Shown here piece by piece: positions 9,047 through 46,414 of a stretch of 64,000 nucleotides of DNA (position 1 is the first letter of the stretch; each line of letters opens with the position of its first letter). Under the pieces are notes generated by a model that did not search any database, was not told where the DNA came from, and saw nothing but the letters and a program-made list of their open reading frames with translations. Source of the DNA: Takakia lepidozioides (Eukaryota; Plantae; Bryophyta); the NCBI GenBank assembly GCA_030704615.1, contig CM060731.1, positions 61,690,001-61,754,000 of the forward strand, written 5' to 3'. A program made the translations under genes and the position numbers.

Positions 9047-11567
9047 GCAAGCTCAATCCTTGCATAGAAAGCATTAGTCTTTCAGGAGATACAGTATATA
9101 TATGTGATTTTGAGAAAAGATCAAAGTCTTCATGCACATAAACCGGTACTGTACTTCAATGGCTTGAAGCCACTGTAAATTTGTAGGTCTCACTGCACAC
9201 AAAATGATTTCCATTGTTAGGATCAGGTGAAGCACTTCGACACCAGAGCTCTGATGGCCATCAGATGCATCAAATCTATCCACAGTGCATGCACCTATTA
9301 AATGTGAGCTATGCAGTGCTTGATAGCCATAAAGTTTTCATAGGGCTATGGTGAAGGTAAGGTTCTCAGATTAGAGTTCACCTGTGCGACTGGGCTGTAA
9401 TTTGCATTTACATCTCCCTCCATCACACACTTTACCACTTGGATATGGAGCTGCAGTCTTGACCATGTCCAAAACATTCGAATTGAACGAGTCCTCCATT
9501 TACTGGAATCTCTGAAGAAGCAGTCCTCTTGCCCATGTACTGTGCATGTTTAGAAAATTCTTACAGTGCAGTCTTAGATGGATTATCCATCCCTATCTCT
9601 GAAAAATGTATTGTACATCGAACTTGAAAAGTCCAAGGTCCGAGAGGTACGTCTCTGCAACATTCTGATGCGAGGTCGCTCTCTCTTCATGCTTTCATGC
9701 TTTGATGTCTGAGTATGTGCTGCTTGGTTCGATTACGCCTAGGCATCCCTCAGAGCAGCAGCACAAAGGTTTCGGAAAAAGAATTGAAGGAGCAGCAGCT
9801 GCAGAAAGGGTTTGGCAAAAGGAATGAAGAAGAGGCAGCCACTGCTGCGCATACAGTAATAGCATGGCACCCACATGGTCTCAAAGCATGTCCGCAAGCC
9901 ATGTTACGCTCGTAGCAACTAGCAACCCTGGGTGCCAGTCTACGCTCCTATGTATTCACATCGCGGTGCATTGAGATTTGTTTCGAACAGTTTGAAGACA
10001 ATTGAGCTGCAATTGAGAGCAATGATAGAGGAGGAGGAGATTTATGGGCGGGACAATGAGCAAGTAGGCCATTCGAAGAGAGAAAAAATGAGTGCCCATG
10101 GTCAGCAATGCTCGCAGTCGGCAAGGCAGTGCCCAGCACTGGAAACATTCCTGACGCCGGATTAGGGGTGCGGAGGAGCTTTGGAACCAATATTTTGCAA
10201 ATCCCAATCGAGACTGGGACAATCCAGGCAATAAGGTGAATATCTCTTCTCTTCCCGAAGAAAGGACAATAGTCGACGCAATGTCTCGCAAAGTTATTAT
10301 AGCTCTCTCTCTCCATCTCACACTGCAACCATATTCCGATGTGTGTCACTTCTGTCGCAAGCTAGAAGCCTGGTGGAGCAGTGCTAAATCAAACTCATGC
10401 TTTCTGGATGCCAGCGCATCGATCTACAGTCAACTCACCGTGACTGCAGTGACAGTCACATTTAGCTCAATTTGTGCAAGCAACAGCGCTAGAGGAGCAG
10501 TGCTGGAATTGGAGCTCATTCTTTCTTGAGGGAGATTATCCCGAGGGAGCGAAGTCGCCATGTCTAAGGCACTTTCTCCCTTTTTTCCACTTCTGTGATG
10601 TGCAACTGAACAGTTTCGTCATGTCTAAGGCTGACGTAGCACTGCTGTGATGAACATAGTGCTGTCTACCATGAGGTCAATGCCACCCTTACATCAGCAC
10701 CCGCTTCCTTGCAGACTGTTTTGTTCGGTTGGCTGAGCAGTGTGACACTTTTTGCCTACTTCACAAAACCCTCTGGGTTTGAAACCCCATGAACGACTCT
10801 GCGAGGTTTATATTTTGTGGGGATGGTCCTGCAAGCATTGTCTCTCTTCGCCCATCTCCCATTGTCAATTACAGTTTGTGGCGAGGGGTAAGGATGTATT
10901 CATTTTGTGGTGAAGGCAGGGAAAGCTGAAGGAGGCAAGGGTGGAGTGTTCGTGCAGATCCAGCCTCGAGGACCAAATTTAAGCACAAGAGTATGGATGA
11001 AGCACTGTGGATTGAACTCTGCAACAGGCCTGCTTGGGTAGTTGGTCAATTGGACAAGCTGGAAGCAGCTAGGCAAAACCCAGGTCTGCAGTGAGCTCTG
11101 TTGCAGGAGAATTATGAGGGCATTTCCAGTATGACAGTCTCTTCTACTTCACCGATGCAGACCTCGTGGACTTCTGATCTTTCGTTTTAGTTGCATGGAT
11201 TAACGTGCTGAGTACTCTCATCAATTTTCAAGCAGGGAGGCAGCAAGCCACCCTTTGCATATCCCAAGGAGCAGAGTCCTTTTACTTTTGAATGATACTT
11301 CTCTCTTCAGACAGAAATGGAGCAGAACAATTGGGTGATGCACGGCATCTCAGCTAGTCTGAATTCATACGTTCGTTGCAAGCAAGTACCTTCATGTTGT
11401 GGTGTGGAAGGGTTACTACGAAACAACACTATCTATTCTGCCTGGCAATTCGTAAGAAGGAGGCCGTCTTCGTGAAGAGATCTGTCTTCGAAGCATGCAG
11501 GAGCTTTAAGATAATTCTATGAGTTTTAGTGTCAAGGTTTGCAACTAAAAGTTTGAAGTCATGCAGG

Positions 11568-13889
11568 ATGGCAGGATTGAATCAAGTACAGCTGTTTGAA
11601 TACAGCATCTCCGCTGTTACCAATGCTTTTGGAAGAGCACCAAGAGAAGAAATCAACAAAAAAAATTCTGGCATTTGTGAGGATGTAAGGACACTATGTA
11701 GGGCAGGACAACTGAAAGAGGCACTGCATGTTTTGAAGCACGGAGGCAGTTCTGCAGACTCCGGTACCTATGTCTGTTTTTTGCAGGAGTGCATCCAGAG
11801 GAGAGGCCTGGCAATGGGAAAGCAGGTGCATGCCCAGATTGTCGAAAGTGGATTTAAGTCAAACATCTTTTTACTCAACACCCTTGTCAACATGTATGCC
11901 AAGTGTGGGAGCGTGGCAGGTGCACGCCTCGTGTTTGACAAAATGCCTGAACGAAATATGGTTACATGGAATATAATGATGGCAGGATATGCCAAGCAGG
12001 GGTGTGGTAGGGAGGCCTTCGAAATCTATGAGCAAATGATACGGGAAGGGATGGCACCCAGCCATGTCACATTCGTTTGCATTCTCAAGGCGTGTGCCAG
12101 CCTAGGATCCCTGGAAAAGGGCAAAAAAGTCCACGTTGACATCATCAAATTTGGAATTTCTCCAGATATTATCCTGGAGACTGCGCTTGTTGACATGTAT
12201 GCGAAATGCGGGAGCATGAAGGATGTACGTGAAGTGTTCAACAATATGGCTAAGAAAGATGTAGTTTCATGGAGTGCGATGATTGCAGGATATGCTCAGC
12301 ATGGGTGTGGTAGGGAGGCTTTGGAGATGTATGAGCAAATGATACTGGAAGGGGTGATGCCCAATAATGTCACGTTCATTTCTGTTCTCAAGGCATGTGC
12401 TGGCCTAGGCGCCCTGGAGAGAGGCAAAGAGGTCCATGCTGAAATCATTCAAGCTGTAATTGTACCAGATATAATTCTGGAAACTGCCCTTGCTGACATG
12501 TATGCCAAATGTGGGAATATGAACGATGCACGGCGAGTGTTTGACAATATGGCTGAACGAAATGTGGTCTCGTGGAATGCAATTATAGCAGGATATGCCC
12601 AGCAAGGGTGTTGTACAGAGGCTGTCCAACTGTTTGAACAAATGAAACAGGAAGGCATGAAGCCGAATGTGGTCTCATGGAGTGCGATGATTGCAGGATA
12701 TGCTCAGCATGGGTGTGGTAGGGAGGCTTTGGAGATATATGAGCAAATGATACAGGAAGGGGTGATGCCCACCCAGGTAACGTTGGTTTCCATTCTCAAT
12801 GCATGTGCCAGCCTGGCAGCCCTGGAAAAGGGCCAAGAGGTCCATGCTGACATCATCAAAGCCAGAATCAAGCCAAATATCATTTTGGAGAATAGCCTTG
12901 TTGACATGTATGCCAAATGTGGGAGCACAAATGATGCACGCCGCGTGTTCGACAATATGGCTAAGCGAGATGTGGTCTCATGGAGTGCCATGATTGCAGG
13001 ATATGCTCAACATGGGTGTGGGAGGGAGGCCCTGACACTATTTGAGAAAATGCTACAGGAAGGCTTAAAGCCGAACGGCATCACCTTGATATGTGTTCTC
13101 TCTGCTTGTAGCCATGTGGGCCTAGTTGATGAAGGCTGTCATTATTTTGATTTGATGAGTCTAGATCATGGCCTTGCTCCAACAGTGGAGCATTTTGGCT
13201 GCATGGTGGACCTTCTTGGCCGTGCTGGGCTATTAGATGAAGCAGAGGACTTCATGAATGCAATGCCAATTAGGCCAGGTGCTTCTGTTTGGGGGGCCTT
13301 GCTGGGTGCCTGCAGAATTCATGGCAATGTGGAGGTAGCAGAACGTGTGGCAATGTGTCTTCTTAAGTGGGATCCACAGGATGCAGGAACTTATGTACTT
13401 CTATCAAACATCTATGCTGCGGCTGGCAGGTGGGAAGATACAGCAAAGGTGAGGACAATGATGGATGACAGAGGTGTCAGGAAGGAGCCAGGGCGCAGCT
13501 GCATTGAGGTGGACAACCAGGTGCATACATTTTTTGTAGCAGATAAAGTGCATCCGAAAATCAAGGAAATCCATGCCGAGCTGAAGAGATTGACTGGGCA
13601 GATGAAAGAGGCCGGGTATCTGCCCGACACACAGTTTGTACTACATGATGTTGAGGAGGAGAGAAAGGAAGCTTCTCTTTGTTACCACAGTGAGAAGCTG
13701 GCCATGGCTTTTGGGCTGATCAGCACGTCCCCCGGGAAACCTCTCCGTGTCATCAAGAACCTTCGGGTGTGCGGCGACTGCCACACCACATCCAAGTTCA
13801 TCTCACAGATTGTTGGAAGGGAAATTGTTGTGCGGGATGCCAGCCGCTTTCACCACTTCCAAGATGGAGTTTGTTCTTGTGGGGAGTAA
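11568..13889 (+). CDS. PLS-class pentatricopeptide repeat protein with E1/E2 and DYW cytidine deaminase domain (organellar C-to-U RNA editing factor); terminal DYW tripeptide truncated
   Basis: Intronless ORF, first ATG at 11568. P-L-S triplets (LVDMYAKCG / VVSWSAMIAGYAQHG / TFVCILKACA), E domains (WGALLGACRIHG, YVLLSNIY), PG box KEPGRSCIE, HSEKLA and CGDCH zinc ligands, and RFHHFQDGVCSCGE followed by TAA TGG TAA. Confidence 0.95.
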   Translation: MAGLNQVQLFEYSISAVTNAFGRAPREEINKKNSGICEDVRTLCRAGQLKEALHVLKHGGSSADSGTYVCFLQECIQRRGLAMGKQVHAQIVESGFKSNIFLLNTLVNMYAKCGSVAGARLVFDKMPERNMVTWNIMMAGYAKQGCGREAFEIYEQMIREGMAPSHVTFVCILKACASLGSLEKGKKVHVDIIKFGISPDIILETALVDMYAKCGSMKDVREVFNNMAKKDVVSWSAMIAGYAQHGCGREALEMYEQMILEGVMPNNVTFISVLKACAGLGALERGKEVHAEIIQAVIVPDIILETALADMYAKCGNMNDARRVFDNMAERNVVSWNAIIAGYAQQGCCTEAVQLFEQMKQEGMKPNVVSWSAMIAGYAQHGCGREALEIYEQMIQEGVMPTQVTLVSILNACASLAALEKGQEVHADIIKARIKPNIILENSLVDMYAKCGSTNDARRVFDNMAKRDVVSWSAMIAGYAQHGCGREALTLFEKMLQEGLKPNGITLICVLSACSHVGLVDEGCHYFDLMSLDHGLAPTVEHFGCMVDLLGRAGLLDEAEDFMNAMPIRPGASVWGALLGACRIHGNVEVAERVAMCLLKWDPQDAGTYVLLSNIYAAAGRWEDTAKVRTMMDDRGVRKEPGRSCIEVDNQVHTFFVADKVHPKIKEIHAELKRLTGQMKEAGYLPDTQFVLHDVEEERKEASLCYHSEKLAMAFGLISTSPGKPLRVIKNLRVCGDCHTTSKFISQIVGREIVVRDASRFHHFQDGVCSCGE

Positions 13890-19484: not shown

Positions 19485-19732
19485 ATGCGTTCCTTTTCTG
19501 GTGGGGTACTTAGTGTATTGATTGCAACTCCACATCTTGGGGCGGTTGGATGCATATAGCCTGGCACAAAGTACAATAATTTGTACACACTGGCGAGCTG
19601 AGATCACAGCTGATGCACTATGGCAACCCATGTGTGAGCAGTTTTGGTTGAAACGAGCACATCCCTTTGTGTCTCATCCAGCAAGACTCCTCTACCATCA
19701 GATGTTATCTTGTGTATGCAATAAGCTTGACC
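19485..19732 (+). pseudogene. F-box domain gene remnant interrupted by the CACTA insertion; the exon resumes at 40110-40121
   Basis: LQLHILGRLDAYSLAQSTIICTHWRAEITADALWQPMCEQFW is an F-box motif, with an in-frame TGA just upstream. Removing the element and one ACC gives ...NKLDRLIK followed by a GT donor at 40122. Confidence 0.6.
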
Positions 19733-20729
19733 CACTACAGGAAAAGGGGGGGGGGTTAGTGACGCCGCGGAAACGGCGCAGCCACGCTGCGGCGTCACTA
19801 AACGCCGCTTTTGAGGCAGGGGCGCAGGTGCCCTTTTGCCACGCCCGGGCGTGGCACGACTGTCCCCGGGGCGTCACTAATCGGACTCGCATAAATGCGA
19901 CGGATGGGGGTTGCAAGCCGCTACCCCCCTCCAGTGACGCCCCGCCGTCACTTTTTGGCCATCTAGGGCTCTGGGGGGGGCCTCCTTGTAGCCACGCCCG
20001 GCCGTCGCTACCACCCCACGACGGCGTTGGTTAGGGCGACGGCTCAGTGTGGCAACCAATTTTTTTTTTTTCCATGCCCGGACTAAAAAAACACCACGTG
20101 GCGGAGGGGGGTTTAGGCTCGACCACCCAGTGGCGTCGCTGCCAGACACGCCACGGCGTCGCATGGGGAAACCCCATCGCCTCAGTGCAGTTGCCCAGTG
20201 CGACTCCGGGGCGTGGTTACTTGCGACCCTCGGGGTGGCTGGGTGCCTTTTTTTACAATAAACAAACTAGTGGGGGAGGCCTGTGTTGGGCTTAGGGACG
20301 CCGAGGCGTCGCAACTAGCCACCCCCGAACGTCGCACAGAAGAAAAACTCATCGCACGGGGGGGTCCGGCTTTGCCACTGCGTTGCTGCTAGCCACGCCC
20401 GGCCGTGGCTAGTTGCGACCCCCATCCGTGGCAAGCCTAAAAAAACCCGTCGCAAGGGCGCTGGCCCAAGTGACGCCCTAGGGTGGCAATGCGGGTGGGT
20501 GGGGGGGGGGGGGGGGGGGGGGCTTCCATTGCTCTGATTTAACAGGTACTCAATTTTGTTTATTGCATTGGTTCAAGCAAGCATGAATCGAGGGTGAGGC
20601 CGTGCGACACACGAATAAGATGGAAGATGGAAATATATGTACAAATGGAAATATATTTACAAGCAACGAGCTGAATTCTTTGCTCACACGGGTTCAATAG
20701 ACTGACCCTGGGACCTACACGGACTAGGA

Positions 20730-25049: not shown

Positions 25050-26972
25050 ATACTATGTCTTGTCGGGACATGGACAAGACCAAACAAAGTCTTTATCAAA
25101 TTAACAACAAATCAGCCTCATAACAAGGCATTATCAATCATCCTTCATTCAAAACCAGTCTTAAAAAGGCATACATCTGATTTCAAAGTAAATGAAATGA
25201 ATGGGTAGGGGGGGTTGGATTACATAAAGAACCCCCCTATATAAATCAGTTTTATATTCAGGAAAACAGGGACCCAAACAAGTGTTACATGTGTGGGTAT
25301 GTTTCATATGGAATATTTACAACTGTGCATAGCAAGAATAAGTGTTCAGCTTGCCAAAATTGCCACCCTTGATTACATTGAAAGCCTGGAAAGAAGTTCC
25401 AACTTTTTTTTGTTTAACACCTTCACCATATTAGAGCTGCAGACATTTTCTAAGCAAATTACACACTAGGGTATAACCAAATACCTTGTTTTTTGCCCCG
25501 CGACCTAGTTTAGGTCTGGGGCCAGTGTGTAAATGCATTAACAAGGTGTTGAACAGCAAGCAATTATTCAGATTGCTACAATTACCACCAATGTCTACAT
25601 TGCACCCTGGAAAAAGAATTCCAGTCTGTTTTGGTAACACAAACACCATATCAAAACTGCAGATACTTTTCTAATCAGTTTACCATCATAGAGTAGTATC
25701 ACAGGGTCTGAATTGTTCATTCCAACATGCTAGTAAGCTGCCATGACATATTTATCCTAAGGCAACATGAACACAGGGCCTGAATCAACTTCTTAACAAC
25801 CAGCAAGTGCTTACCACCATGGACATTGTCCATTAAAAAAGCCAAGCATCCAGGGGCTTGTAACCAAAAACATTATCTAGTCAAAGAAGAGCCACCCTAC
25901 GATTTTGCATAGCACCAGATGTCCTAAAACAGCCTGCTCGTAACAGAATCCAGGCTTTCCAAGGTTTACAATAAATGACACTATTTGGTCAAAAAACAGA
26001 GCTTCCCCACTTTGCTACTGGGTACTAGATATCTTAAAACAGCCAGCTCGTCATATAATTGCTCCAGTGTCACAACAGAAGGCCACAAGGAACAAGAGAA
26101 AAATATCTTAATGAATCGTTGTCCACCATAGAAGGTTAAGAACAAAGGCCAGAAAGATCAATGCAAAGAGGCAGAAAGAGGTCTTCTCCCCCAAAGATAC
26201 AGAGGTAGCGGCGTCGCATCAGTAGCTCGATTTCATTCAACTTCAAGCTCAAAGAATCATATTAAGTGAGAACCCTCACCTGGTCCCATCACAAGCCCCC
26301 ACAAAAACCAACATGTTAGTAAGGATTGTGGAACCCCAGGTGAATCACAGGTCTCACGCTTATTATCGTTGTACAACATGCATTCCAAAGCAGGAGCAGA
26401 AAGAAATCAGAGCATAACCAAGCCATCACCTTGATGGTTTGCGGAAGAGAAGCCTGCGAAATGGCTCCCAAGACCAACAAACAACAAAACACAAAAAGAG
26501 TGGATTGCCCAAGCATTTTAACAGGTTCATTCACTTCCCTGAGGTCTTAAGATGCGCCGTTGTATCTTAATGATCAATGAAGGGCACAACAAACGATCAC
26601 AACCTGGGTAGATTGCCCGCCAACATAAGAGACAACCGCCACAGGGAAATTGAAGGCACTGCCGCCATTGCGCACCCCAAGAGAGGAAGAAAGTACTAGA
26701 ATCTTGCCAAAAACCTGCAGACCTTAATTACGCAGCACCAAATAATCAAAGGCCCTGAATCGGGCTCAATGCACACTCCGCCACCATCCCTCAGTTCCAG
26801 CAAACCTTAAGCACGATCATCGTGCAGAAAATTAGGGCAGGGAGGAGATGAAGCTATTTCCCCGCGATTTCATCCGCACTTGATGAAATCCACCAACAAA
26901 CGGTTGAAAAAATCCCGATTTTTCATCCCTGTGTCATCCGCCAGGGATGACATCTAGATAGGGATGAAAATC
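25050..26972 (-). mobile_element. Unclassified repeat, copy B (inverted)
   Basis: 26270-26350 is the near-exact reverse complement of 33850-33930. Nested TCATCC/GGATGA palindromes at 26865-26972. Terminal motif in reverse at 25050-25081. Boundaries approximate. Confidence 0.6.
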
Positions 26973-26974
26973 AT

Positions 26975-27115
26975 TTGGCATTCATTACAGAGACGGCTCC
27001 CATTCTGGCTCCCGCGCCGGATACGGCGTCTACCATGCCGCTACTAACAAAGAAACCGCAACTCTGCGCGGGGCGTGGGGGCGCGGCTGGCATCGCAACC
27101 CCCCCCCCCGTAGTG
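26975..27115 (+). mobile_element. Internal second CACTA right terminus
   Basis: GCGCGGGGCGTGGGGGCGCGG...AACCCCCCCCCCCCGTAGTG (ends 27115) closely matches the outer right end at 40053-40106. It is followed by CAC rather than ACC. Confidence 0.75.
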
Positions 27116-29700
27116 CACACGGAGTCTTGCCAATATGTGGCACACAAGCCAGAATCAAACGTTGTTTTGCGCTTCATGTCAAGAGCACGCATGCGGAAAT
27201 GACAACCGTGATCCCAAACCGCCGTGTATGAGGTCGCGAATTGAGAAGGGCCCCTTGCAAGGTCTTGCACCATATCTGAAACCACCTCACCTTGAGAAAC
27301 GACGTCATAACTGAAGTCTTGAGCCACTGTTGGAATGAACTTAGAGGCTGCAATTCCACGGGCAAATCTTGTGAATGAACATTCCAGCGGCCCGCTCCTC
27401 GTCGACGACGTCTAGTAACCGGCCTTGGATGGTTCCGCCTCCATGCAAGCGTCTCCTCCTCTCATTGTTGAACAAGGTTATTGTATCTTGCCTCCCACTC
27501 ATGTATGGATGAGGTGTTCTTCAGTATGAAGTCATGCGCTTGCTCAATAACCAAGGTCGGCAATTTTACCCTCTTCGATTTTTTGGGCAAAACAATGTCT
27601 TTGGTTCGTGCATCCTCCTCTTCCTTCCACATCCGAGGGGCTTCCTCATCCACCCTTGCCATGTACTCCATGCAATAGAACATAGCTTCTGCAATGTATA
27701 CCCTCCGCCATGCTACCCTCCGGGTGCGTCATTTGTCTTACAAATGCTTTCAAAGTCTTCATGTAATGCTCAAGGAAGTACATCCACCGAGAATGATCGG
27801 GGCCGGCAATCGAAGCCTCTTCCATTAAGTGCACTACCAAGTGCACTTGGATGTCAAAGAAAGAAGGTTCAACATCCAACATACCTCCGCCGACTCCTTC
27901 TTCATGTGTGGAAAATCCGCTTCCTCCAACTCTTTGGAGCAAATCCACCGGAACAAGCCTCCCAATCATTAGATTGTCTCGCTGACCTTAGGAGTCAATG
28001 TCATATTTACTGCAATGGGCAAGATGTCTTGCAAAATATTGTGGTAGTCATGAGACTTCAAACCATGGACCCCGTCTTCATTGAACTTTATACGGAGGGA
28101 TGACCCATAACCAGTTGGTGTTTGGACAGCACCTATGGTGGCTATCACATTCTTGTATTCCTCCTTTCCATTGCCAAGGTGCGCGCCTATACTTCCACCG
28201 TACAACACCCTTTGGGTCCACACCATTTTGTTTGGCCCATAGATGGTGCATGCAACCCTGCTCCTCAAGCTCTTTTTTCTAACACCGAGAGAATCTCCTT
28301 TTGCAGCCACTCCTTTCTTTGTTGGCGTGCCATGAAAAACCCGAAAAAGGGACGAGCAGACATTCTTATCAATATGCATGGGATCTAGAAGATGGCGAAT
28401 CTTCAGGTCCTACATATATCCCCACCCACAAATACTTACACAAATTTTTTGACGTGAAAGTGACAATGCAACGCATACCAAATGTGCAATATCACATACA
28501 TGCATAGGGATATTGACTGTGTTTTTGTGGAATACATACCGCCCAATATGGCAACTCGTAGAAGATTGAAAGTCGCTTCATACCGGGCACGTCCACTTCA
28601 CCGACCGTGCCCGCATGGGCCTCCTTCCATCGGTCTTCCCAAAACTACCCAGATGGTGTCACAGGGGGGGGGGGGGGGACGTACCTCCTCTTTGCCATCA
28701 AACAAGTGTTTCTCTCTTCTTCTCCATCGATGGCTCATAAGAAGTAACTTGCGGTAGTTGGGATACACCATCTTGCGAAGATGACGGGAGCTATGTGCAT
28801 CAAAATCATCGTCACAATGCAAGCACGCATGGTACCCTTCGGTGCTTAGCCCTGAGCAAATAGTTAGCCCAATACACATCCCGCCACATTAGCCAAGACA
28901 AGAAGTTCTCATGTGCATGGCCCATAGTGTCATTTACCCCACTACGGTGCACAAGACTGTCGCCTTGACAAGTAAATGTACGCGGGTTCTTCATGGGGAA
29001 CATAATATACCTGGATAATTACGCATTGTCCAAAGCAATATGCCTCTCATCTGAAAAGATTGTCCGGCCATAGGGTCAAGTGAAACATCCAATGCCGGGA
29101 CCCCCCTCCATAGCTCCTTAAGTTCATCAACTAGAGGTCGCAAGTACGTGTCCATGTTTGCCACTTGTTTTTTCCCTATGAGACATTCACATCATTGTTT
29201 CAATACTCCACCAATATACAAATTATACTACATAATGAATTACACGTCTTACTCCATGATTATGTCACTCATCAATCTTGCATCCGAATTGCGCCAGAGA
29301 TCATAAGATTAATATAAAGTCCAAGGGAATAATAAGCATGAAATGGAAACACTCACCTGGTACAATGGCAGCCAACATGATATGACCCTTTTTTATTGAA
29401 AAATACGGAGGGATGTTGTAATTCACCAAGGTCACCGGCCAAGTGGAATGACTACATGACTGGACAAAGTATGGGTTGACCCCATCCGAGGAGAAGCCGA
29501 GGCGGACATGTCCTGGGTCCTCCAAGAGGAAAGGCCACATCTTTTCAGTATGCCTCCATGCTTGTGAATCTTGTGGCCCGCACACCTTTCCCGAGGGGCT
29601 CCGATGCGAGGCATGTCATCTCATCAGTGTTGCCAACTCCGGGCTTTGGTAGTGTGCCTTCAATCGCGGGATGAACGGAAAGTAATGCATTTTCTAGGAT
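27116..29700 (-). pseudogene. CACTA TnpD transposase relic (Transposase_21 + DUF4218 region), frameshifted
   Basis: Motifs DSQAWRH...VRLGFSSDGVNPY...HSTWPV.LVNYNIPP, MDTYLRPLVDELKELW, MHIDKNVCSSL, GLKSHDYHNILQDILPIAV and RWMYFLEHYMKTLK...PEGSMAEG, spread over several frames. It breaks off at 27116. Confidence 0.9.
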
Positions 29701-30790
29701 GAAATACCCCACGTCCCCCACATATAATCATCCCATTATGACACATAATACATATGTCTTTCCCTTTATACAGCCTCTCCCTCATTTGGGTGTGAATGGT
29801 CAAAACTGAACGTCGCTAGTATTACTACAACTTAATATAAGCAAAATGCAAACAACAACCTTCAATGTATGCATGCATCAAATAGGTCATTCAATAATTA
29901 CATGTATGTGCGCAACGTCACACATGCAAAGTTTCAAACCCAAACAAAATCATTTGCCCCCCCAAGGACGCGTTCACCCTATCAACCAATTTTTGTCATT
30001 GCACCCATCAAACGATGTGGTTCAAGCTTCACTTTTTCCCACATGTGCTTAAATATGTGTGCAACACATGTGCAAAGATCCAGCAAAAAAAAAAACATTT
30101 GCCTCCCCAATGACGCACTCACCCTTGAACCAATTTTGAATTAAATCGAATTTAAAAAAAATTAAAATAAATATTTGCATTTAGAAAATATATGATTGCG
30201 GTTTTGAGGGGCGTAATGATTTTATTTTTGACTCTATTTTGTTCTGTGACATCGGGGTTTGCACCACTACATCCATGCAAAAGCTTGGACAAAAAAAAAA
30301 AGGAAAAAAAAAAGTGTGTTTCTAGGGTCACTTTTGCAGAATTCTTTTATGAAGAGTGCATGAAGTTGAAGATAATTCAACTGTGGAGTACAAATGAGAA
30401 AACAAAATATGGTTCTGGGTCCAAATGACTCTTGTTTACTCCCAAATTTTGCACACACATTGCATATGCTATCATTAAGCATATGGTTTGAAAATGGAAA
30501 AAAAATAAAATCATGTGCAGGCGAAACGCAATTTTCCGTCTCTACGACACGTAGGTGCGTTCAACACTAGAATGACCCATTGAATGAACTTGGTTCAAGC
30601 TCATATTTGGTCCTTATGTGCATAAGTATGTTCAGATTACATATGTAAAGTTGCAACCCACACGAGCAACAAGAAAAATATTTACATCAATCGATTAATC
30701 AGATGTATACAAAGTACATCATGAGAATATCTACAATGCCGCTCTACGCGATCCCTGTCTCAAATGAACCCTATTTTTATCATACACATC

Positions 30791-31703
30791 TCACTCATGT
30801 TGTAACCGGAGGTCCCAATCATCTCGGGAGAACTCGTATGAGGCAAATAGCTCGCTGCCAACCCTAATAGTCCTATTAACACATGTCATAACAAGCATTT
30901 GCATCCCCTCACAATATACCGACGTATGACCACAAAAGCTCTCATGCCCATCGCTTCGCTCGTCCCATACTACATTGGTTCTCCTAGGGTGACCAAAATA
31001 ACTGTTGATGAGCATAGCAACATTGCCGAAGATATCGGGGTCACCATCACAAAATCTGATCTCAATGGGAGACAACCCCCGTCTACGTACATCATGTCCG
31101 TTGACACACAAAATGTAGAGTAGGATGTATGGGGCTTCGAGGCGTAATGTACGGAACTCCCCGGAGGTGTAATATGGACCGTAGTAAGGAAACAAGTCCC
31201 ATGCTGTTTCTCCGAGGATGAACCACAATATCATTGACCATGAATAAACCCCGACCCATAGCAGGGTCAATAACGGCTCTCACAACATACCGTCTACCCC
31301 AATAATCAAACTCCACATTCTCTCGGATGGGGGTAGGAGGGTCGAGATGATTCCCCCAGCAACGAGGCTGGACGGTCCTCAGTAACATAGTCCTATGCGC
31401 TTCCCACCGGAGGCGAGGATTCAGCTCAGGCTGCCCAAGCCGAAGGGGAGAAATCTAGGGCGAAGCCGACCCCTCATAGGGGTCCGGGGGGGGGGGGGGC
31501 ACATGCACGTGGAGGTGGAGGTGGTACTGCTGGCAGAGGAGATGAAAGTGGAGGTGGTTGAGGATGTAATGCAGGAGGCACAGCTGGGGGTACAACGTCC
31601 GGATCAGACAAAGAAACAGACGGGAGGGGGGGGGGGGGGGGGGACAATAGGCTTGCAAGCTGCTACTGCATGTACGGCGGGGAGAATCATCAGATGAGGA
31701 CAT
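30791..31703 (-). pseudogene. SET-domain (lysine methyltransferase-like) gene carried inside the CACTA element; one in-frame TAG (31455-31457) and a frameshift (~31210)
   Basis: AMGRGLF (SET motif I, GxG), FPYYG (YxG), GNVAMLINS (RFINHS-type motif) and RTIRVGSELFASYEF (I..GEELxxDY-type motif) appear in the correct order. The N-terminus is Pro/His/Ser-rich and low-complexity. Confidence 0.72.
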
Positions 31704-32959
31704 TGGATCAGGGGACCGCCTAAGGAAACCGGAGGGGGGGTGGGCCAAAAATCCCAAAAAGACCAGTCCCACATTGCCCAAGGGCCTAAGCCTTTGCCTC
31801 AGCCTCAGGAATTTCAAAATTGATAAACAAAGGCTGAGCATCCCTCTGGTGAGAGAACCCAAGACAATCACGTTCTGTCTTCGGGTTGCCCATATCATGG
31901 AAAAATTTACTGAGACCCAACGTTTTGTGCTTATCATATTGAACCACTTTTTGGATGTGTGAATCATAATTACACCGTTTATCCTTTGATCCCCAAGACC
32001 CACAACCAAAACCTAGCACCATAAAGAAAAACAAACACCCTAGCCCAAAACCATAAAAAACAAAAAAAAAAACCCTAAAAACCCTAAAAACCCCAAAAGG
32101 CCCTAAACCCTAAACCTACAAAGTAACCCCCTGTTGCCCAGCTAACAAGGGGGAGGTTGGGGTTGCCACCCCCTACAATCGCTCATTGCGACGCCGTGGC
32201 GTCGCATCATGCAACACGTTTTTTGGCTGTTGCCACGCAGGGGGGTTGCAAGATGCGATGGCCAGCCGTGACAACCCCCATTTTCAAATTCTAAAATAGG
32301 GCGCGGCGCCGGCGGGCCATGGCCGGGCGTGGCTCGTCGGCGCCGCGCCATTTTGTTTTTCCTAAGTGCTTGAAGTACTTGCTCTCTCCCCCCCCCCCAC
32401 CCCGTTTTCATTTGCTCTTTGGGAGAGAGAGAGGTGGGACTGTGGGGCTTATAGTGGAGAAAGCTTACCTGCAGAGGTAGCTCCGGGTGGTCGCAATGCG
32501 GAGACGAACTCGCCCCAAGCTGTTGCTGCCGCTCCAACGCCGCGCCGCGCAGGTATGTTTTGCCTCCTTCCTCTCTTTCTCTTTTTCTCTCTTGCTAACC
32601 TCTCTCTCTCCTGTGTGGCAGAAACGCCATGGAGAGGCATCCGCAAAGGAAGCGGAAGGAGAGAGAGGGGCGTGGGGGAGCGGGGGAGAGAGCGCTGCAG
32701 CGGCGGGGAGACGCGCCGTTTGTAGCAGCCACGGCGCCGAAGCAGCAGAGGTAGGTTTTCTTTTCTCCCGCTCCATTTCTAGTTAGTTATTTATTGTGGT
32801 GAGTGAAAAAAAAAGAGGGAGAGAGAGGGAAAGAGGGGAAAGATAGGGAGAGGGACAAAGGGAGAGAAAAGAGAGTGAGGGAGAGAGAGGGAGAGACAAA
32901 GAAAAAAAAAGAAAAGAAAAAGATGGGGGGGGGGGAGTGACTGAGTAGCTGCTGCTGAG

Positions 32960-38799: not shown

Positions 38800-39391
38800 A
38801 CTTCAGTATACAAGGTACCGACCTCTTCTCTTTAAGGGAAAGTGGTTCCAGCCACATCTTGTGGGGCCCTCCTCAACACTAGTGCGAGATGATTGTGGTT
38901 TCATGCGCGTCAATGCAAATAGGCTCAACCCTACTCATTGTCCCTCCGATGAGCCTTTTGCATTTCCTTTAGACATGGAGCAAGTTTTCTTCTCCGATGA
39001 CAAAACAAGAGGGGGAAATTGGAAGGTAGTTGTGCATGTTCAACCAAGAGGAAGACGTATCTATCGTGGTCTTAGATCTTCACGGGGTGAGGCAATTACG
39101 GTGGAGGGACGGATTGGTCATAATGATGCTAATGATGGAGGTTGGGTAGAGGGGGTAGAAGAGGATGATGACGCCCCGGAGAATGCATCCCGGACCCTAT
39201 ATGATGAAGCTCTAGAAGATACGGATGTTGGACAAGGAGATGAAGACACGACCATTGACAACGAGGTGGAGGATGATTCGGAGGTGCCTTTTGAGGGCCG
39301 GGCCATTTATGATGATGACCCCAATGACCAAGAAGACTTGCAGCTTGATGAGGATGAAGAAGCTCCGGATGATGATGTTCAAGTTTATTAG
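38800..39391 (+). pseudogene. C-terminal piece of a CACTA transposase (DUF4216 region plus acidic tail), opposite in orientation to the main relic
   Basis: LLFKGKWF then VRDDCGFMRVN...DEPFAFPLDMEQVFFSDDKTRGGNWKVVVHVQPR. A 17-bp tandem duplication (38783-38816) sits at its 5' junction. Confidence 0.8.
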
Positions 39392-41829
39392 ACACGTAAT
39401 CAAAGCTACATAATAATTCTCGCAACGAACTATACCCATCATTTCGATTGATTGTACATGTACATGCATATTGTAGCTTATTTCTATGATTCATCAATGG
39501 TCTTGCAATCATCTCTCTCTCTCTCTCTCTCTCTTGATGATGATGATGATGCAAACAAATCTATTAACAACCAAGAGAGGGAGAGAGAGGGAGAGAGAGG
39601 GAGAGAGAGAGAGAGAGAGAGATGGGGGGCAAAGAAAGAAAAACAGAGAGGAGAGGGCCCCCCCTAGAGTCCCATCCCCCGTCCCCACCCCCTCTCCTGC
39701 CCCTTAACTCAAAGAAAAAGACCGCCCCCCCCTTGCCCCCCCCGCCGTGGCAAGCCAAAAAAAACCCGTCGCAATACCCCCTTGCCATGCCCGGCCGTCG
39801 TAGAGGCCTTTTCCCCCTTCAAGCCACCTTGCCACGCCCGAGCATGGCAAGTGGGGCCGCCCCCCTTTGCGACGGCCAGGCGTGGCAAGAAAGGGCTACC
39901 TCTTGCCCTTTAGGCCACCTTGCCACGTCCCGGAGTCGCAGAATGATCCCGGCGCTGGGGGGCAACACCTGGGTGTTGGGTTGCCACGCGGCGGCGTCAC
40001 AAGCAATGCCGGGGCGCTGCCGTGCCACGCTCGGCGTCGCACGCTCAGCGCCGCGCGGGGCGTGGGGGCGCGGTTGCCGTCACTAACCCCCCTTTTTGCA
40101 GTAGTGACCGACTCATAAAAGGTAATTACCTTTGTCACCATGAGTTATCCTCCATCCACAAACTTACAAGTTTTGATTATGCATGTCTGTCTCTTGCCCC
40201 TGGTGGTGCATTGCCACTCACAACCATGTTTCACGTCTGTGTTAGCCAGAGTGCTTGTTCTGTGCCTCATGTGATCAGTAGTGCATCTACAACTGCACAT
40301 TAAATGTCTCTCAAGGGAATGGTCTCTCTCTCAGTAGCCTGGTCCATTTTCTTATCTAACATAGAAGTTGGTAGGACGGAATAGACCAATGGGTCTGGAC
40401 AGTGAATCCAATGATGACTGTCATGCAAGCCGCCCTATAAAGCCAATCAAAAGTTAGGAGCACAATCAGTGCTACATTTCACACACATATCTCCCATTAT
40501 GACCAGACTAGAATCAGCTGAGGAGACAACACTGCCAACTATTAATAACTATGTGCCCACAAGTGATCATAACTATCTTTGAGGTCACGCCAGGTGCCTA
40601 CACCACAGTCAAAGGAGCATCCATCTTCCTAAGCATTTTGAAGGTCAATAGAATATATCATCTCTATTACTGGGTGCTCAACCTATTTTCCATTGCTAGC
40701 CATTCAGAAAGTGCAAATGTTTACTTTCAGCAGTCATGCACAGTGTGAATTTACAGAATGACTCATGTTCATGTGATTTGCCCTATCAGGAATTGTACTT
40801 TGAAACACAGGTTTCATCCAAGAGAAGTGTGAGGTTTCTTGGTGACTGGGATATGCTCTGAGTTAGAACACAAAAACCAAGGAAGGAGCTGGTCCTCAAC
40901 TAAAGCAGCCACACATGAAGTACAAATGCGCCGTTCTCATAGCTGCCATGGCTTGTACTGTCACAATATCTATATGAATATGCTTCCGGAAGGAGGATTT
41001 TGAAACTATGCCAAGGCAGATATATAGGTTGCCATCTTATGGTCTAAGTGTACTCCATCATTTGATTTGCATTTTATATTATCTATTTTTCTTTCTTTAT
41101 GTATGCAGGTTCTCGCCATAGAGCTTAAGAATAACGCCAACAAGCTAGCTAAGTGGACTGCCCAAGCTTCTTTCTGGGGCAGAATAGGTAACTCCCCTCT
41201 TTGTACATTTTCTTTGTCTCGATAGGTGGAGAGACAGGTATGGATTAAGGGGCTGAGTTTACAGTACACATGATGAGCTAAGACAAATACTGTGACTGTT
41301 TTCCACATTAGCACATGACCGGTCAAAAGGGTGACAAGTCCAAATTGCCCACAAAATTCTTAAATATTATAGCTTTTGCGAGTTTGTGACACTGCCAGCA
41401 AGTGCTTGTGGTGGCTCACAACTGGTGACTACACTGATGTGAGTTGGTTTCATCTTGCACCAATGTATCTGCTTATTTTTGTGAATTGCGTGAATTGTCA
41501 CCTGCATTCATGTCTTACTTTCAAGCAGGAAGAGGTCCACCATAGATCCTACCTAGTTGGGTAAAGCAGATAGAGATCAAGGAGTGATGAAACCCTTTCC
41601 CTTGTGGTTGTAACATTAATGGTGATGCTTTTGCTTCAATTTGCTGGAACGTTTGTGATAAAAGCAGTGCTTATTCATGTTTAGCATGTATATAGGTGGT
41701 AAACAAACAAGGAGTGATGTTTGTCAGCAGTGCTAGAAATAATGGACCATCATTGACCACTGTGGGTGCACCAGAGGACACAACCTCCAGCATCTTAGGT
41801 ATAGGGGTTTATGTGTCCCCTGCAATGGC

Positions 41830-42891: not shown

Positions 42892-45800
42892 CGAGGGTAG
42901 CCTGTGCCGTTGGCCCAAGTGTCCAGTGTCATCTAAGTCCAAGTGCAATCCCCTTATATTCATCCAAGTGTGTCCCCTATGTCGAGGCTCAAATGCGACC
43001 TCTAGGATAGCCTAGTGTGCGGTTGGCCCAAGTGTCGAGTGTCATCTAAGCCCAAGTGCAAAATCTCATATGTATCCAAGTGCGTCCCATATGTTGAGGC
43101 CCAAGTGTGACCTCTAGGGTAGCCTGTGTCGTTGGCCCATGTATGAAGAATTGAAATCTAAGACCAAGAGCAATTTCCTATATATCCCAGTGCGTCTCCT
43201 ATGTCGAGGCCCATCTAAGCCCAAGTGCAATCGTCTATGTATCCAAGTGCATCTTCCATGTACAGGCCCAAGTATCCACTGTCATCTAAGCCCAAGTGCA
43301 ATCTCCTATGTATCCAAGTATGTCTCCCATGTTAAGGCGCTATTAATTTTTTTCCATGAATTTATTGAGTAGTAAAATATCCAATGTCATCTAAGTCCAA
43401 ATGCATTTTCTTTCCACAGAGCCTACGACCAGATTTGAACCGGAGACTTTCCATTGATATCTCTCCTGTCGAGGTTCCAACTATTGTCCAGGAACGCCCA
43501 TTTTGCTATTTTTTTGCGAATTTCCAGCGACCAAAAGTACTTGAAATTCTAAATCTCCCACATGCAAGGGCCAATCATTGCTTCAGGAAAGCCCACTTTG
43601 CTATTTTTGTGAAATTTCCAGCAACCCAAAGCACTTGAAATTCCACATCTCCCACACCGTTGGTCCAAAGATCATGAGACCAAGTTGGTGCACCCCTCCT
43701 GATCGAGGGCTTTCCAACGGCACCAAGCACCCGCGCGGGGGGCCTCGCGGTTTGGGAGATCTCAACGACTCTACAAACAAAACAAACAAAACAAAACAAA
43801 CGTCTCGCTTCATGTATTGGTTAGGTAGTCACCATAAGGAGGAGCCATTACGCGACGAGCCGTTTGTTTTGTTTTGTTTTGTTTTGTAGCGTCGTTGAGA
43901 TCTCCCAAACCGCAGGGCCCTTGTGCGGGTGCTTGGTGGCGTTGGAAAGCCCTCGGGGAGGAGGGGTGCACCGGCTTGGTCTCATGATTTTTGGTCCAGC
44001 GGTGTGGGAGATCTGGAATTTCAAGTGCTTTGGGTCGTTGAAAATTCGAGAAAAATAGCAAAGTAGGCTTTCGTGGAGCAATGATCGGCCCTTTATGTGG
44101 GAGGTTTGGAATTTCAAATACTTTTGGTCGCTGGAAATTCGCAAAAAATAGCAAAGTGGATATATCAATATATGAAGCCTCGACAGGGGAGATTGCAAAA
44201 ATAGCAAAGTGGGCAATGACATAGAGATCTCCCAAACTATAGGTCTTTGGATACATTGGGGATTGCGGTGGACACTGGAGGTCACACTTGGGCCTCTACA
44301 TGGGAGATGCACTTGGATACATGAATAGAAGATTGCACTTGGGCTTAGATGGGCCTCAACATAGGAGACGCACTTGTCTTACATTTCAATTCGTCACACA
44401 TGGGCTGACGACATAGGCTACACTAGAGGTCGCACTTGGGCCTCGACGTAGGAGACGCACTGGGATACATAGAAGATCTTACACTTGAGCTAAGATGGCA
44501 CTGGACACTTGGGCCAATGACACATGCTACTCTAGAGGTTGCATCAGGGCCTCGACATAGGAGACGCACTTAGATACATAGGGGATTGCACTTGGACTTA
44601 GATGATGACACTGGACACTTGGGCCAACGGCACTGGCTACCCTAAAGGTCGCATTTGGGCCTCGACATAGGAGACGCACTTGGACTTAGATGATGACACT
44701 GGACACTTGGGCCAATGGCACAGGCTACCCAAGTCAATATATGAAGCAAGACGTTTGTTGTGTTTTGTTTTGTTTTGTTTTGTAGCGTTGTTGAGATCTC
44801 CCAAACCGCGGCCCCAGCGCGGGTGCTTGGTGCCGTTGGAAAGTCCTCGATGAGGAGGGGTGCACCGGCTTGGTCTCATGATTTTGGAACAAGCGGTGAG
44901 GGAGATGTGGAATTCCAAGTACTTCTGGTCGCTGGAAATTCACAAAAAATAACAAAAATGGCAAAGTGGGCATTCCTGGGACAATGGTTGGAGCCTCGAT
45001 GGGAGAGATATCAAGGCTCAGTGGAAAAAAACTTACTTAGATGACATTGGACACTTGGGCCAATGGCAAAGGCTACCCTAGAGGTTGCATTTGGGCCTCG
45101 ACATAGGAAACGCACTTTGATACATAGGGGATTGCACTTGGAGATAGATGACACTGGACACTTGGGCCAACGGCACAAGCTATACTAGAGGTCGCACTTG
45201 GTCTCGACATAGGAGACGCATTGGGATACATAGGGGATTGCACTTGGGCTTAGATGACACTGGGCACTTGGGCCAACGACACAAGCTACCCTAGTAGTGA
45301 TAATGTAAGAGCTTAATGCACATGTTTGATTTAACAGAGCGGTACGCTGGTCTCGGGCATGTCACATCCCCTCTCATGACATGCAATCGGGTGACAGGTA
45401 TAAAATCTCCTAGGAAGAAGTTACACCATACACAAGGTTAGGGTGACACAGTCCGAGGTGACACTACCACCCATCAAGAATCGAGCCCGCACCTCATAGC
45501 TACTACCATCGCCATCACCTTATTAGTAGGCTACTTGTCGTTGAAAAAAGACCACCTGCATTTTGAAATAAAGAGTTTGCAAGAACAAGAGGTTGGGCAA
45601 GATTTGACAAGCCCAGGGAGCAAAAGTATGTACCAGAAAATTGCATGAGTGCATTAAATGCTTACATAATTCTTGTTGTTTCCCCACCGAAGGGGGCTGG
45701 TATCATGAGGACCTGCGGTGTGGAGGATATGGAATTTTGAGTACTTTGGGTTGCTGGAAATTCAGGAAAAATAGCAAAGTGGGCTTTCCTCGAGCAATGA

Positions 45801-46414
45801 TTGGTCGCCCCTTCACTTGGGAGATTTGGAATTTCAAGTACTTTTGGTTGCTGGAAATTCGCGAAAAATAACAACGTGGATATATCAATTTTTTTTTAAA
45901 TGATATATTGCAAAAAGTGTGCTTTGTTGGAACAATGACATGGAGATCTCCCAAACTGTAGGGCCTATGCATAGGGGATCACACTTGGACTTAGATGACA
46001 TTGGACACTGGAGGGTCGCACTTGGGCCTCTACATGGGAGACGCACTAGGATACATAGGAGATTGCACTTGGGCTTAGATTTCAAAACTTCACACATGTG
46101 GCAATGGCAGATGCTACCCTAGGCCTAGATCTCCCAAACAGGAAGTCTCTTGATACATAGGGGATTGCACATGGACTTAGATAACATTGGACACCGGAGG
46201 TTGCACTTGGGCCTCTCTCTACATGGGAGAAGCACTTGGATGCATAGGAGATTGCACTTGGGCTTAGATTTCAATTCTTCACACATGGGCCAATGACAAA
46301 GGCTCCCCTAGGTCTAGATATTCTAGATTTCCCAAACATGAGGGTCTGTGGATACATAGGGGATTGGACTGGGACTTAGATGACAGTGGACACTTGGGCC
46401 AATGACTATCCTAG
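42892..46414. mobile_element. Cluster of four related non-autonomous Helitron-like elements: 42892-43820 (-), ~43853-44733 (+), 44734-45294 (+), ~45715-46414 (+)
   Basis: 5' ends TCAATATATGAAGC (44734; also 44165; inverted variant at ~43807-43820). 3' ends ...CTACCCTAG|T (45294), ...CTATCCTAG|T (46414) and an inverted CTCG|T at 42892. No TIR/TSD. ~115-bp internal tandem units. Confidence 0.6.

Follow-up and report, generated by a model that had tools for sequence, protein, structure and literature searches.

Whether a plant transposon can keep a SET-domain (lysine methyltransferase-like) gene as a working part of its own machinery is the question raised by a stretch of 64,000 nucleotides from Takakia lepidozioides, hereafter the window (assembly GCA_030704615.1, contig CM060731.1, positions 61,690,001 to 61,754,000 of the forward strand). 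An initial annotation, made from the letters of the window alone, had read a compact, intronless SET gene there, upstream of the transposase TnpD, and had proposed it to be a resident third gene of a CACTA family. The peptides it quoted were found at their minus-strand positions, the order of its four SET motifs and the absence of post-SET cysteines were confirmed, and a Transposase_21 remnant (PF02992, E 4e-17 by Pfam profile search) does follow the SET frame on the same strand. Comparison with sister copies elsewhere in the genome revealed that the SET-like frame is not a product of chance and that the copy in the window is broken and dead.

In the window, the SET domain with its C-terminal helix (family residues MLLRTVQ...GAL-stop) occupies 30731..31388 on the minus strand, as delimited by sister-copy alignment, and this stretch is 93.3% identical to the family majority sequence. 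Its GxG codons lie at about 31256-31248 and the codon of the catalytic-position tyrosine at 30838-30836, both on the minus strand. The same alignment revealed a premature TGA at 30793-30791 (TGG>TGA), the family stop being at 30733-30731, and the substitutions G126M and S131Y were found around motif III. A frameshift had been placed near 31210; the reading frame does break within the SET domain, and the exact event is a 2-nt deletion at 31200/31199. Farther upstream, sister-copy alignment identified 31389..31744 (minus) as what is left of the SET exon's Pro-rich linker, frameshifted by a 1-nt deletion (31451/31450) and by slips in C-runs. Several details of the earlier reading dissolve in this linker: the proposed protein start MSSSDDSPRR (31703) sits within it, its ATG being a GTG in sister copy L040; the "Pro/His-rich tract" is the linker read off-frame; and the TAG ascribed to a CAG->TAG deamination (31457-31455) consists of letters that open copies also have, off-frame (CCT AGG), and is exposed here because of the 1-nt deletion and the C-run slips.

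Beyond the linker, at 31745..31788 (minus; sister-copy alignment), a deletion has left a junction whose filler of about 44 bp is unmatched, and what is missing at 31788/31744 is about 0.8-0.9 kb comprising exon 1 (the ATG and a CxCxxC..H knuckle), intron 1 and a conserved 55-aa PRLD...GY block. The CACTA-type GC-rich repeats noted behind the gene belong to a 5' non-coding region upstream of the lost exon 1 (31788..32744, minus), which matches complete elements (70% identity to L044) and is likely to represent the promoter and subterminal region. On the other side of the SET domain, comparison with complete copies located a second deletion junction (29817..29836, minus), where the loss of about 850 bp has removed the acceptor of TnpD exon 2 together with the acidic stretch and the PLYxG...PRKV exon. 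The middle part of TnpD follows at 27116..29817 (minus); it is decayed, 87% identical to the complete element L037, and holds the Transposase_21 match at 29307-29519. The frameshifts, the premature stop and the two losses of about 0.85 kb bear out the earlier description of this copy as mutated. In the Pfam search, sequences P0001 and P0002 matched no family.

Relatives of this broken copy are abundant in the genome. The C-terminal frame of the SET domain gave at least 151 genome matches at E<=0.001, a lower bound with 150 of 457 candidates scored. Twenty loci of 10 kb have about 9.4 kb in common, with a sharp end at ...CCATTTGCTGTAGTG, and the 15-mer of the 3' terminal inverted repeat (TIR) occurs 191 times in the genome versus 0 for the control. 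Two elements are complete, with both TIRs and a target-site duplication (TSD): L037, of 11,184 bp (TSD GTG), and L044, of 10,455 bp (TSD TGC). The CACTA TIRs CACTACAGGAAAA... and ...TTTG(C/T)TGTAGTG are present in L037, in L044 and in the window, which are the 3 of the 21 family-A loci examined in which both ends were identified, and subterminal GCGACG..CGTCGC units in both orientations are common to both ends in all four copies compared (4/4). Further families, B, C and D plus a single E copy, came to light when the genome was searched with the Pfam SET profile and with a divergent copy; the SET stretches of A-D are 50-64% identical. Family B accounts for at least 61 among the 150 matches listed, at >=67% identity; its 3' ends (...GTAGTAGTG) were found in three of five loci, and a search of 10 extended loci recovered no 5' TIR for family B, C or D. 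The initial annotation had asked, as a tBLASTn check, whether SET copies consistently lie beside TnpD within CACTA TIRs; of 54 10-kb loci centred on a SET match, 44 have TnpD downstream of SET in the same orientation, a count that scores L113, fetched off-centre, as a miss although TnpD follows its SET. A knuckle precedes SET in 36 of these 54 loci. The SET exon is thus resident in CACTA elements, in many copies and several families, and bounded by TIRs and TSDs. As a separate observation, the 5' 3 kb of family A are unstable and contain a repeated fragment with a CPLC...HFLIHC motif (L037 element 817-1320, and the 5' regions of many copies), which is also inserted in L148 and which, we presume, resembles the end of a LINE.

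Profile and structure searches, set beforehand as the refuting test of the SET assignment, recovered the fold. AlphaFold2 on a 62-sequence alignment gave a model with pLDDT 84.3 and pTM 0.78 (pLDDT 33 from a single sequence), and the window family is accordingly predicted to encode a SET fold. The model matched SET8 with Z 12.6, rmsd 2.2 and 122 aligned residues, in a tie with yeast COMPASS Set1 and SET7/9 (Z 12.2-12.6, rmsd 2.2-3.2 and 122-134 aligned for the three; Foldseek E 4e-6), and the matches to EZH2, SUVH6, ATXR5 and SET8 all lie at most 2 Z units below the top. The fold therefore ties writers of active and of repressive marks and favours neither direction of effect. An Atlas language-model search returned SET clusters at 0.96. 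Among the 62 aligned family members, 38 match PF00856 at E<=0.01; the open copy P0003 alone scored 15.7 bits, under the Pfam cut-off of 22.4, and the relatives P0004 and P0107 pass it. The best solved match of the family profile was Legionella LegAS4 (E 3e-6); phmmer against the PDB found nothing, nor did a word-based search with P0003 among 66 candidates.

The active-site positions, whose roles we take from SET8 and SET7/9, are largely preserved. Counted over the aligned members covering each position, motif I (GxG) has G45 in 53/57 and G47 in 54/57; motif II (YxG) has tyrosine or phenylalanine at 69 in 58/59, phenylalanine being the residue in 20/59, and G71 in 56/59; and motif IV has E180 in 48/51, Y185 in 45/51 and an aromatic residue at 187 in 34/51. 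Motif III, for which NHS is the consensus of SET domains, has N129 in 53/62 and reads NSS, with serine in place of histidine, in 59/62. Overall, GxG, YxG, the motif-III asparagine and the motif-IV glutamate and tyrosine are kept in 85-95% of covering rows. The Phe/Tyr-switch position, two before the tyrosine, is occupied by a small residue (Ala in 19, Val in 13 and Cys in 6 of the 51 rows), and a small residue there is the rule for di- or tri-methylation. In fold (Z 11-12.6, rmsd 2.2-3.2), in motifs I, II and IV and in having neither a pre-SET nor a post-SET zinc module, the family resembles minimal SET proteins (human SET8, SET7/9, yeast Set1, Legionella LegAS4/RomA and giant-virus SETs), from which it differs in its identity of only 13-25%, in NSS for NHS, in a DG.P insert and in a W-G-R-x-[WY] strand before motif I. 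No close donor was found in the host: tblastn gave no match at E<1e-3 to 29 host SET loci, and the family profile reached a best domain E of only 0.004 against 34 host SET loci, the classes compared being, as we take them, E(z), ASH1, TRX, SUVH, ATXR5/6 and SMYD. Searching viral_contigs for relatives gave 103 pattern matches with 0 confirmed, and viral fold matches are only 13-25% identical.

Cross-family comparison revealed that the SET domain is one part of a spliced unit. A conserved upstream exon comprises an ATG, a Pro/Arg-rich stretch, the knuckle ECWCxxCW...HxxxHY and then ADAA[KR]|GT; the GT donor past the knuckle is present in all 27 loci listed, and a phase-0 CAG|CC acceptor 112-179 nt downstream of it in 16 of the 27. 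The earlier statement that there is no evident intron is thereby overturned, since an intron of 112-179 nt precedes the SET exon in the gene. Two runs, X1 and X2, which we presume to be RNA, bear on the splicing. An X2 contig skips exactly the predicted 140-nt GT-AG intron (L044 6779 to 6638), so that exon 1 joins SET in this single contig, which has a depth of 10, 60 letters on its shorter side and the flag "between: not known". One X1 contig skips a 280-nt TnpD intron, and another reads through intron 1 unspliced. The one long SET contig, from X2, stems from a decayed copy, as it carries G122D and E180T. The exon 1-to-TnpD joint was not seen in X1 or X2, where L044 4257-4466, the 5' part of TnpD exon 2, has no contig cover.

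Past the SET stop, TnpD opens with an acidic stretch behind a phase-0 acceptor, in open frame, in 11 of 17 loci (A 5/5, B 4/4, D 2/4, C 0/4); an in-frame TnpD acceptor was not found in the four family-C loci and two of the four family-D loci. The TnpD of SET-bearing elements has no knuckle of its own, and in SET-less CACTA families of the same genome a PF13963-type knuckle stands directly ahead of TnpD in 17 of 20 loci. With a profile of the SET-lineage knuckle, knuckle ORFs of SET-less families made up 14 of the top 15 among 2,960; homology of the knuckle to the TnpD N-terminus received an hhalign probability of 12% (E 0.002), exon 1 was not matched in a Pfam PF13963 scan, and the Atlas search with the knuckle exon as query returned nothing above 0.85. 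These comparisons suggest that the knuckle exon is likely to be common to SET and TnpD; TnpD likely uses exon 1 because it lacks a knuckle of its own and offers a phase-compatible acceptor. Most simply, SET can be read as an alternative terminal exon located in intron 1 of TnpD. The proposal of a compact, intronless third gene is hence retained as far as residence in a CACTA family is concerned and replaced as regards the gene itself, a spliced exon that follows the knuckle exon and precedes the remainder of TnpD. SET looks like a second product rather than a third, because no TnpA was detected in the elements. At the start of the SET exon, a PRLD...GY block of 52-55 aa (L044 6638-6480, minus; L148 2982-3137, plus) is 45-54% identical across A, B and D and has no Pfam match; it may be a further binding module.

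TnpA appears to be missing from the SET-bearing elements. SET-less families have weak PF03004 matches, under the cut-off, upstream of TnpD and in divergent orientation. Queries made of TnpA-like ORFs matched 11 of 20 SET-less loci versus one among 74 SET-side stretches, that one being a compound locus, and gave no match in the window, bearing in mind that the queries were ORFs of SET-less families and that a very divergent TnpA could escape them. Ten extended loci of families B, C and D gave one TnpA-like match, 7 kb upstream and outside the shared element, and no TnpA-like ORF was found in the two complete elements. SET and TnpA are apparently an either-or, which suggests two interchangeable answers to host silencing. 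Among the SET-less loci, L169-L188 comprise several CACTA families with long uninterrupted TnpD frames (<=636 codons), near-identical copies and a divergent TnpA-like gene, and some of these families look young.

Majority sequences of families A-D, built from 42, 15, 7 and 6 copies, were used for the dN/dS comparison that had been suggested for this gene. In all six family pairs, the SET stretch has a dN/dS of 0.19-0.25; dS between families is 1.35-2.51, near saturation, and the uncorrected pN/pS intervals all lie below 0.66. For TnpD exon 2, dN/dS is 0.06-0.13 in five unsaturated family pairs. Single copies, by comparison, have private pN/pS values of 0.55-1.16, near-neutral. The SET exon is thus under purifying selection between families, and the combination of near-neutral private changes with constraint between families implies that the SET gene is kept in transposing lineages and decays in the copies left behind. 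The earlier view that this is not a fresh host capture agrees with the at least 151 copies, the lack of a near host donor and a dN/dS far from neutral between families. C>T changes are raised at CG and CHG (0.04-0.08 per site vs 0.015-0.021 at CHH), an indication that the host methylated these copies. We also observed that TnpD exon 2 of families A and B is close (90% identical, dS 0.72; L044, L104, L105) and that no other pair of families has SET stretches as far apart as theirs (50%, dS 2.24); an exchange of SET exons between A and B is possible.

The family extends beyond this genome. Sixty-eight relatives were found among 1.84 billion proteins. Named relatives belong to Riccia sorocarpa, which has many such gene models, and to Calypogeia fissa, Psilotum nudum and Ginkgo biloba. 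The Riccia proteins open with the CxCxxC..H knuckle, and in R1sor_014433 and R1sor_002439, two gene models of that species, SET-family sequence runs into TnpD, an order also seen in the Takakia elements. A full knuckle is present in 11 of 122 relatives, most others being unspliced ORF calls. A TnpD tree of 114 columns, unrooted, narrowly sampled and carrying a long-branch warning, separated 13 SET-bearing rows of this genome and 2 Riccia rows from 21 SET-less rows at a split of 100/99, and none of the 20 SET-less 10-kb loci had a SET match. A SET tree built in quick mode, from which one of 51 rows (D_L141) dropped out, grouped the nine rows of this genome in a single clade (SH-aLRT 99), with the Riccia rows falling into at least two other clades. 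Three metagenome loci with relatives are only 1.1-2.2 kb long, too short for neighbour genes, and gave no TnpD match. Dozens of liverwort gene models named "SET domain-containing" are likely to be transposon products. A further Riccia model (P0127, R1sor_012700) fuses a host-type Pre-SET/SET piece to the family knuckle and linker, which likely reflects either a host SET gene hit by an insertion or a merging of annotations.

Of the layout and the selection, taken alone, we are quite confident. Our preferred explanation goes further and proposes a CACTA element with two products and a shared exon. One promoter would drive the zinc-knuckle-type exon, which would be spliced alternatively to SET or to TnpD. 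The knuckle-SET product would be a lysine methyltransferase, with catalysis suggested by the conserved residues, and the knuckle would tether it to the element's own ends, where it would presumably write a permissive histone mark and keep the element active; the small Phe/Tyr-switch residue points to di- or tri-methylation. The SET product would in this way stand in for the missing TnpA activator. We give this explanation about even chances. An activating role is preferred mainly because SET stands where the TnpA activator is missing, and the explanation is weakened by the serine that replaces the histidine of NHS (59/62) and by the phenylalanine in place of the motif-II tyrosine (20/59). A bolder version, which we put forward tentatively and consider rather doubtful, holds that an old land-plant CACTA lineage swapped TnpA for a histone methyltransferase encoded by an alternative exon within the transposase gene, that the shared zinc knuckle addresses both products to the ends of the element, and that the NSS site writes a mark which host enzymes do not, a private switch ranging from liverworts to ferns and Ginkgo.

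Among the alternatives, the one that survives best keeps the layout and an active enzyme and changes the substrate, so that the enzyme would methylate the transposase encoded by the element itself or a silencing protein of the host. We regard this as unlikely on the whole. SET7/9 and SET8 stand level as best fold matches, and both structures were determined with non-histone or single-site peptides; a common knuckle could pair the two products; and the family has no pre-SET/post-SET module and no close host class (best domain E 0.004, 34 host SET loci). The best solved profile match is, however, a bacterial SET protein with a histone H3 peptide, Legionella LegAS4/RomA, for which the available text reports activity on H3K14, and families A, C and D have a basic C-terminal helix, a feature that would suit nucleosome DNA. 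That the SET product writes a repressive mark of the H3K9, H3K27 or H4K20 type, limiting the element or hiding new insertions, seems improbable, as SET takes the place of an activator, TnpA, and the families reached high copy numbers. Consistent with such a mark, the structures of EZH2, SUVH6, ATXR5 and SET8 come within 2 Z units of the top fold match, the copies bear methylation footprints, and H3K27me3 is reported on DNA transposons in a liverwort in the accessible part of that account (10.1101/2022.10.24.513474).

A catalytically dead or weak SET could also act as a reader or decoy, binding a histone tail or SAM and either shielding the element or guiding the transposase. The near-universal NSS for NHS, the frequent phenylalanine for the motif-II tyrosine and a SET dN/dS 2-4 times that of TnpD would all accord with lost catalysis, yet GxG, the YxG glycine, the asparagine, the glutamate and the terminal tyrosine are kept across proteins that are 26-40% identical, and a solved bacterial SET with phenylalanine at the histidine position is described as active in the portion of its report available; we judge loss of catalysis to be improbable. 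SETMAR is a SET-transposase fusion, and the two Riccia models that join SET-family sequence to TnpD could suggest a single fusion as the main product here. This is highly unlikely: both models look like annotations of broken copies (the SET is partial in R1sor_002439), the majority sequence of each family closes the SET frame with its own stop region, an X2 contig passes the SET stop unspliced, and a search, itself weak, found no long fused relative among 7,981 candidates. Neutral hitch-hiking of a captured host gene fragment, for which one might cite the near-neutral decay of single copies and the other inserted fragments at the 5' ends of the elements, is scarcely credible given a dN/dS of 0.19-0.25 between families, the lack of a near host donor, splice sites conserved in four families and the same order in a liverwort.

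Among transposon proteins, only VANC and TnpA have to our knowledge been shown to act on the chromatin of their own element, and both are binding factors. In the accounts available, VANC of the Arabidopsis VANDAL elements is, like the product proposed here, an element-encoded protein proposed to counter silencing with sequence specificity; its activity was shown experimentally and it is not a SET enzyme, whereas anti-silencing is an inference for the present family. With En/Spm of maize and Spm3 of Arabidopsis, so far as their accounts describe them, the Takakia elements share CACTA termini, a 3-bp TSD, subterminal repeats, a Transposase_21 TnpD and a predicted second product of one unit, and in Spm3 this product, TnpA, is described as an alternatively spliced anti-silencing product (10.64898/2026.08.24.746577). 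The second product differs, being a DNA-binding regulator in En/Spm (TnpA) and here a SET fold, a predicted enzyme, encoded between the first and second TnpD exons.

SET cargo on transposons is already known. HarbingerS and MuDR families of Phytophthora are reported to carry SET genes (PMC12730594), and so are Helitrons (10.1101/2025.02.11.637652); these are likewise transposon-borne SET genes, in other superfamilies and hosts, described as accessory genes, with exon sharing unmentioned in the accessible text. A further parallel is PAG2 of the red-algal Plavaka elements, of the EnSpm/CACTA superfamily, described as a SET-domain accessory protein and proposed to be a transcription modulator (10.1101/2025.02.11.637652). 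Compared by description, both are EnSpm-superfamily DNA transposons with a long-kept SET accessory protein; PAG2 is a separate gene that combines SET with an N6-adenine DNA methylase and belongs to a cassette of three genes in elements of 17-19 kb. Unlike Plavaka, the elements described here have a plant TnpD transposase, a SET that is a nested exon, and no methylase, an N6-adenine methylase domain not being found in the open 397-462-aa SET frames or their Pfam scans. Transposon SET cargo has thus been reported several times, with no assay described in the available parts of those accounts. Our literature search, with Repbase Reports, most subscription journals and preprint supplements outside its scope, found no report of SET in land-plant TnpD-type CACTA elements; a nested exon with a likely shared knuckle and an apparent replacement of TnpA was not found in print. 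With four families in a single genome, copies that are open, a splice structure that has been defined, and relatives in liverworts amenable to transformation, the land-plant case makes it possible to test directly whether a transposon writes histone marks of its own.

The setting of the broken copy within the window is itself composite. Outer TIRs at 19733 and 40106 carry one duplication, ACC, and delimit a composite CACTA insertion of 20.4 kb. On the left, the duplication (19730-19732, plus), which matches the right-hand ACC, is followed by the 5' TIR CACTACAGGAAAAGG (19733-19747, plus), the same 5' end as in L037 and L044. On the right, comparison with complete elements identified 3' subterminal repeats, the 3' TIR ending ...GCAGTAGTG (40106) and the duplication ACC (40107-40109), together spanning 39782..40109 (plus). 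The SET-bearing segment, from about 33089 to 27116, is inverted relative to these outer TIRs and to a 3' part of TnpD at 38800..39497 (plus; DUF4216, PF13952, E 2.4e-6, under the cut-off), which picks up at 38800 where the minus strand stops at 27116. Adjoining the TnpD break is an inner CACTA-type 3' end (GC-rich subterminal region, C-run and GTAGTG; 27060..27115, plus), recognized by comparison with complete elements; its flank, CAC, gives no match to the ACC duplication. The inverted segment looks like the outcome of alternative transposition. Of the two breakpoints, 27115/27116 and 38799/38800, one has the inner CACTA 3' end and the other a 17-bp duplication. A 94-nt inverted repeat at 26257/33850 was considered as the element TIR and rejected. 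The 20.4-kb insertion splits an F-box-like coding exon (19522-19732 and 40110-40122, plus; PF12937, E 7e-6), whose frame appears to resume past the right-hand ACC and to continue until a GT donor. Elsewhere in the window, 42894-46319 is a separate repeat element, an array of direct and inverted units of 57-190 bp, and a PPR gene at 11523-13886 (plus) is open over 788 codons and has E, E+ and DYW domains, of the organellar RNA-editing factor type.
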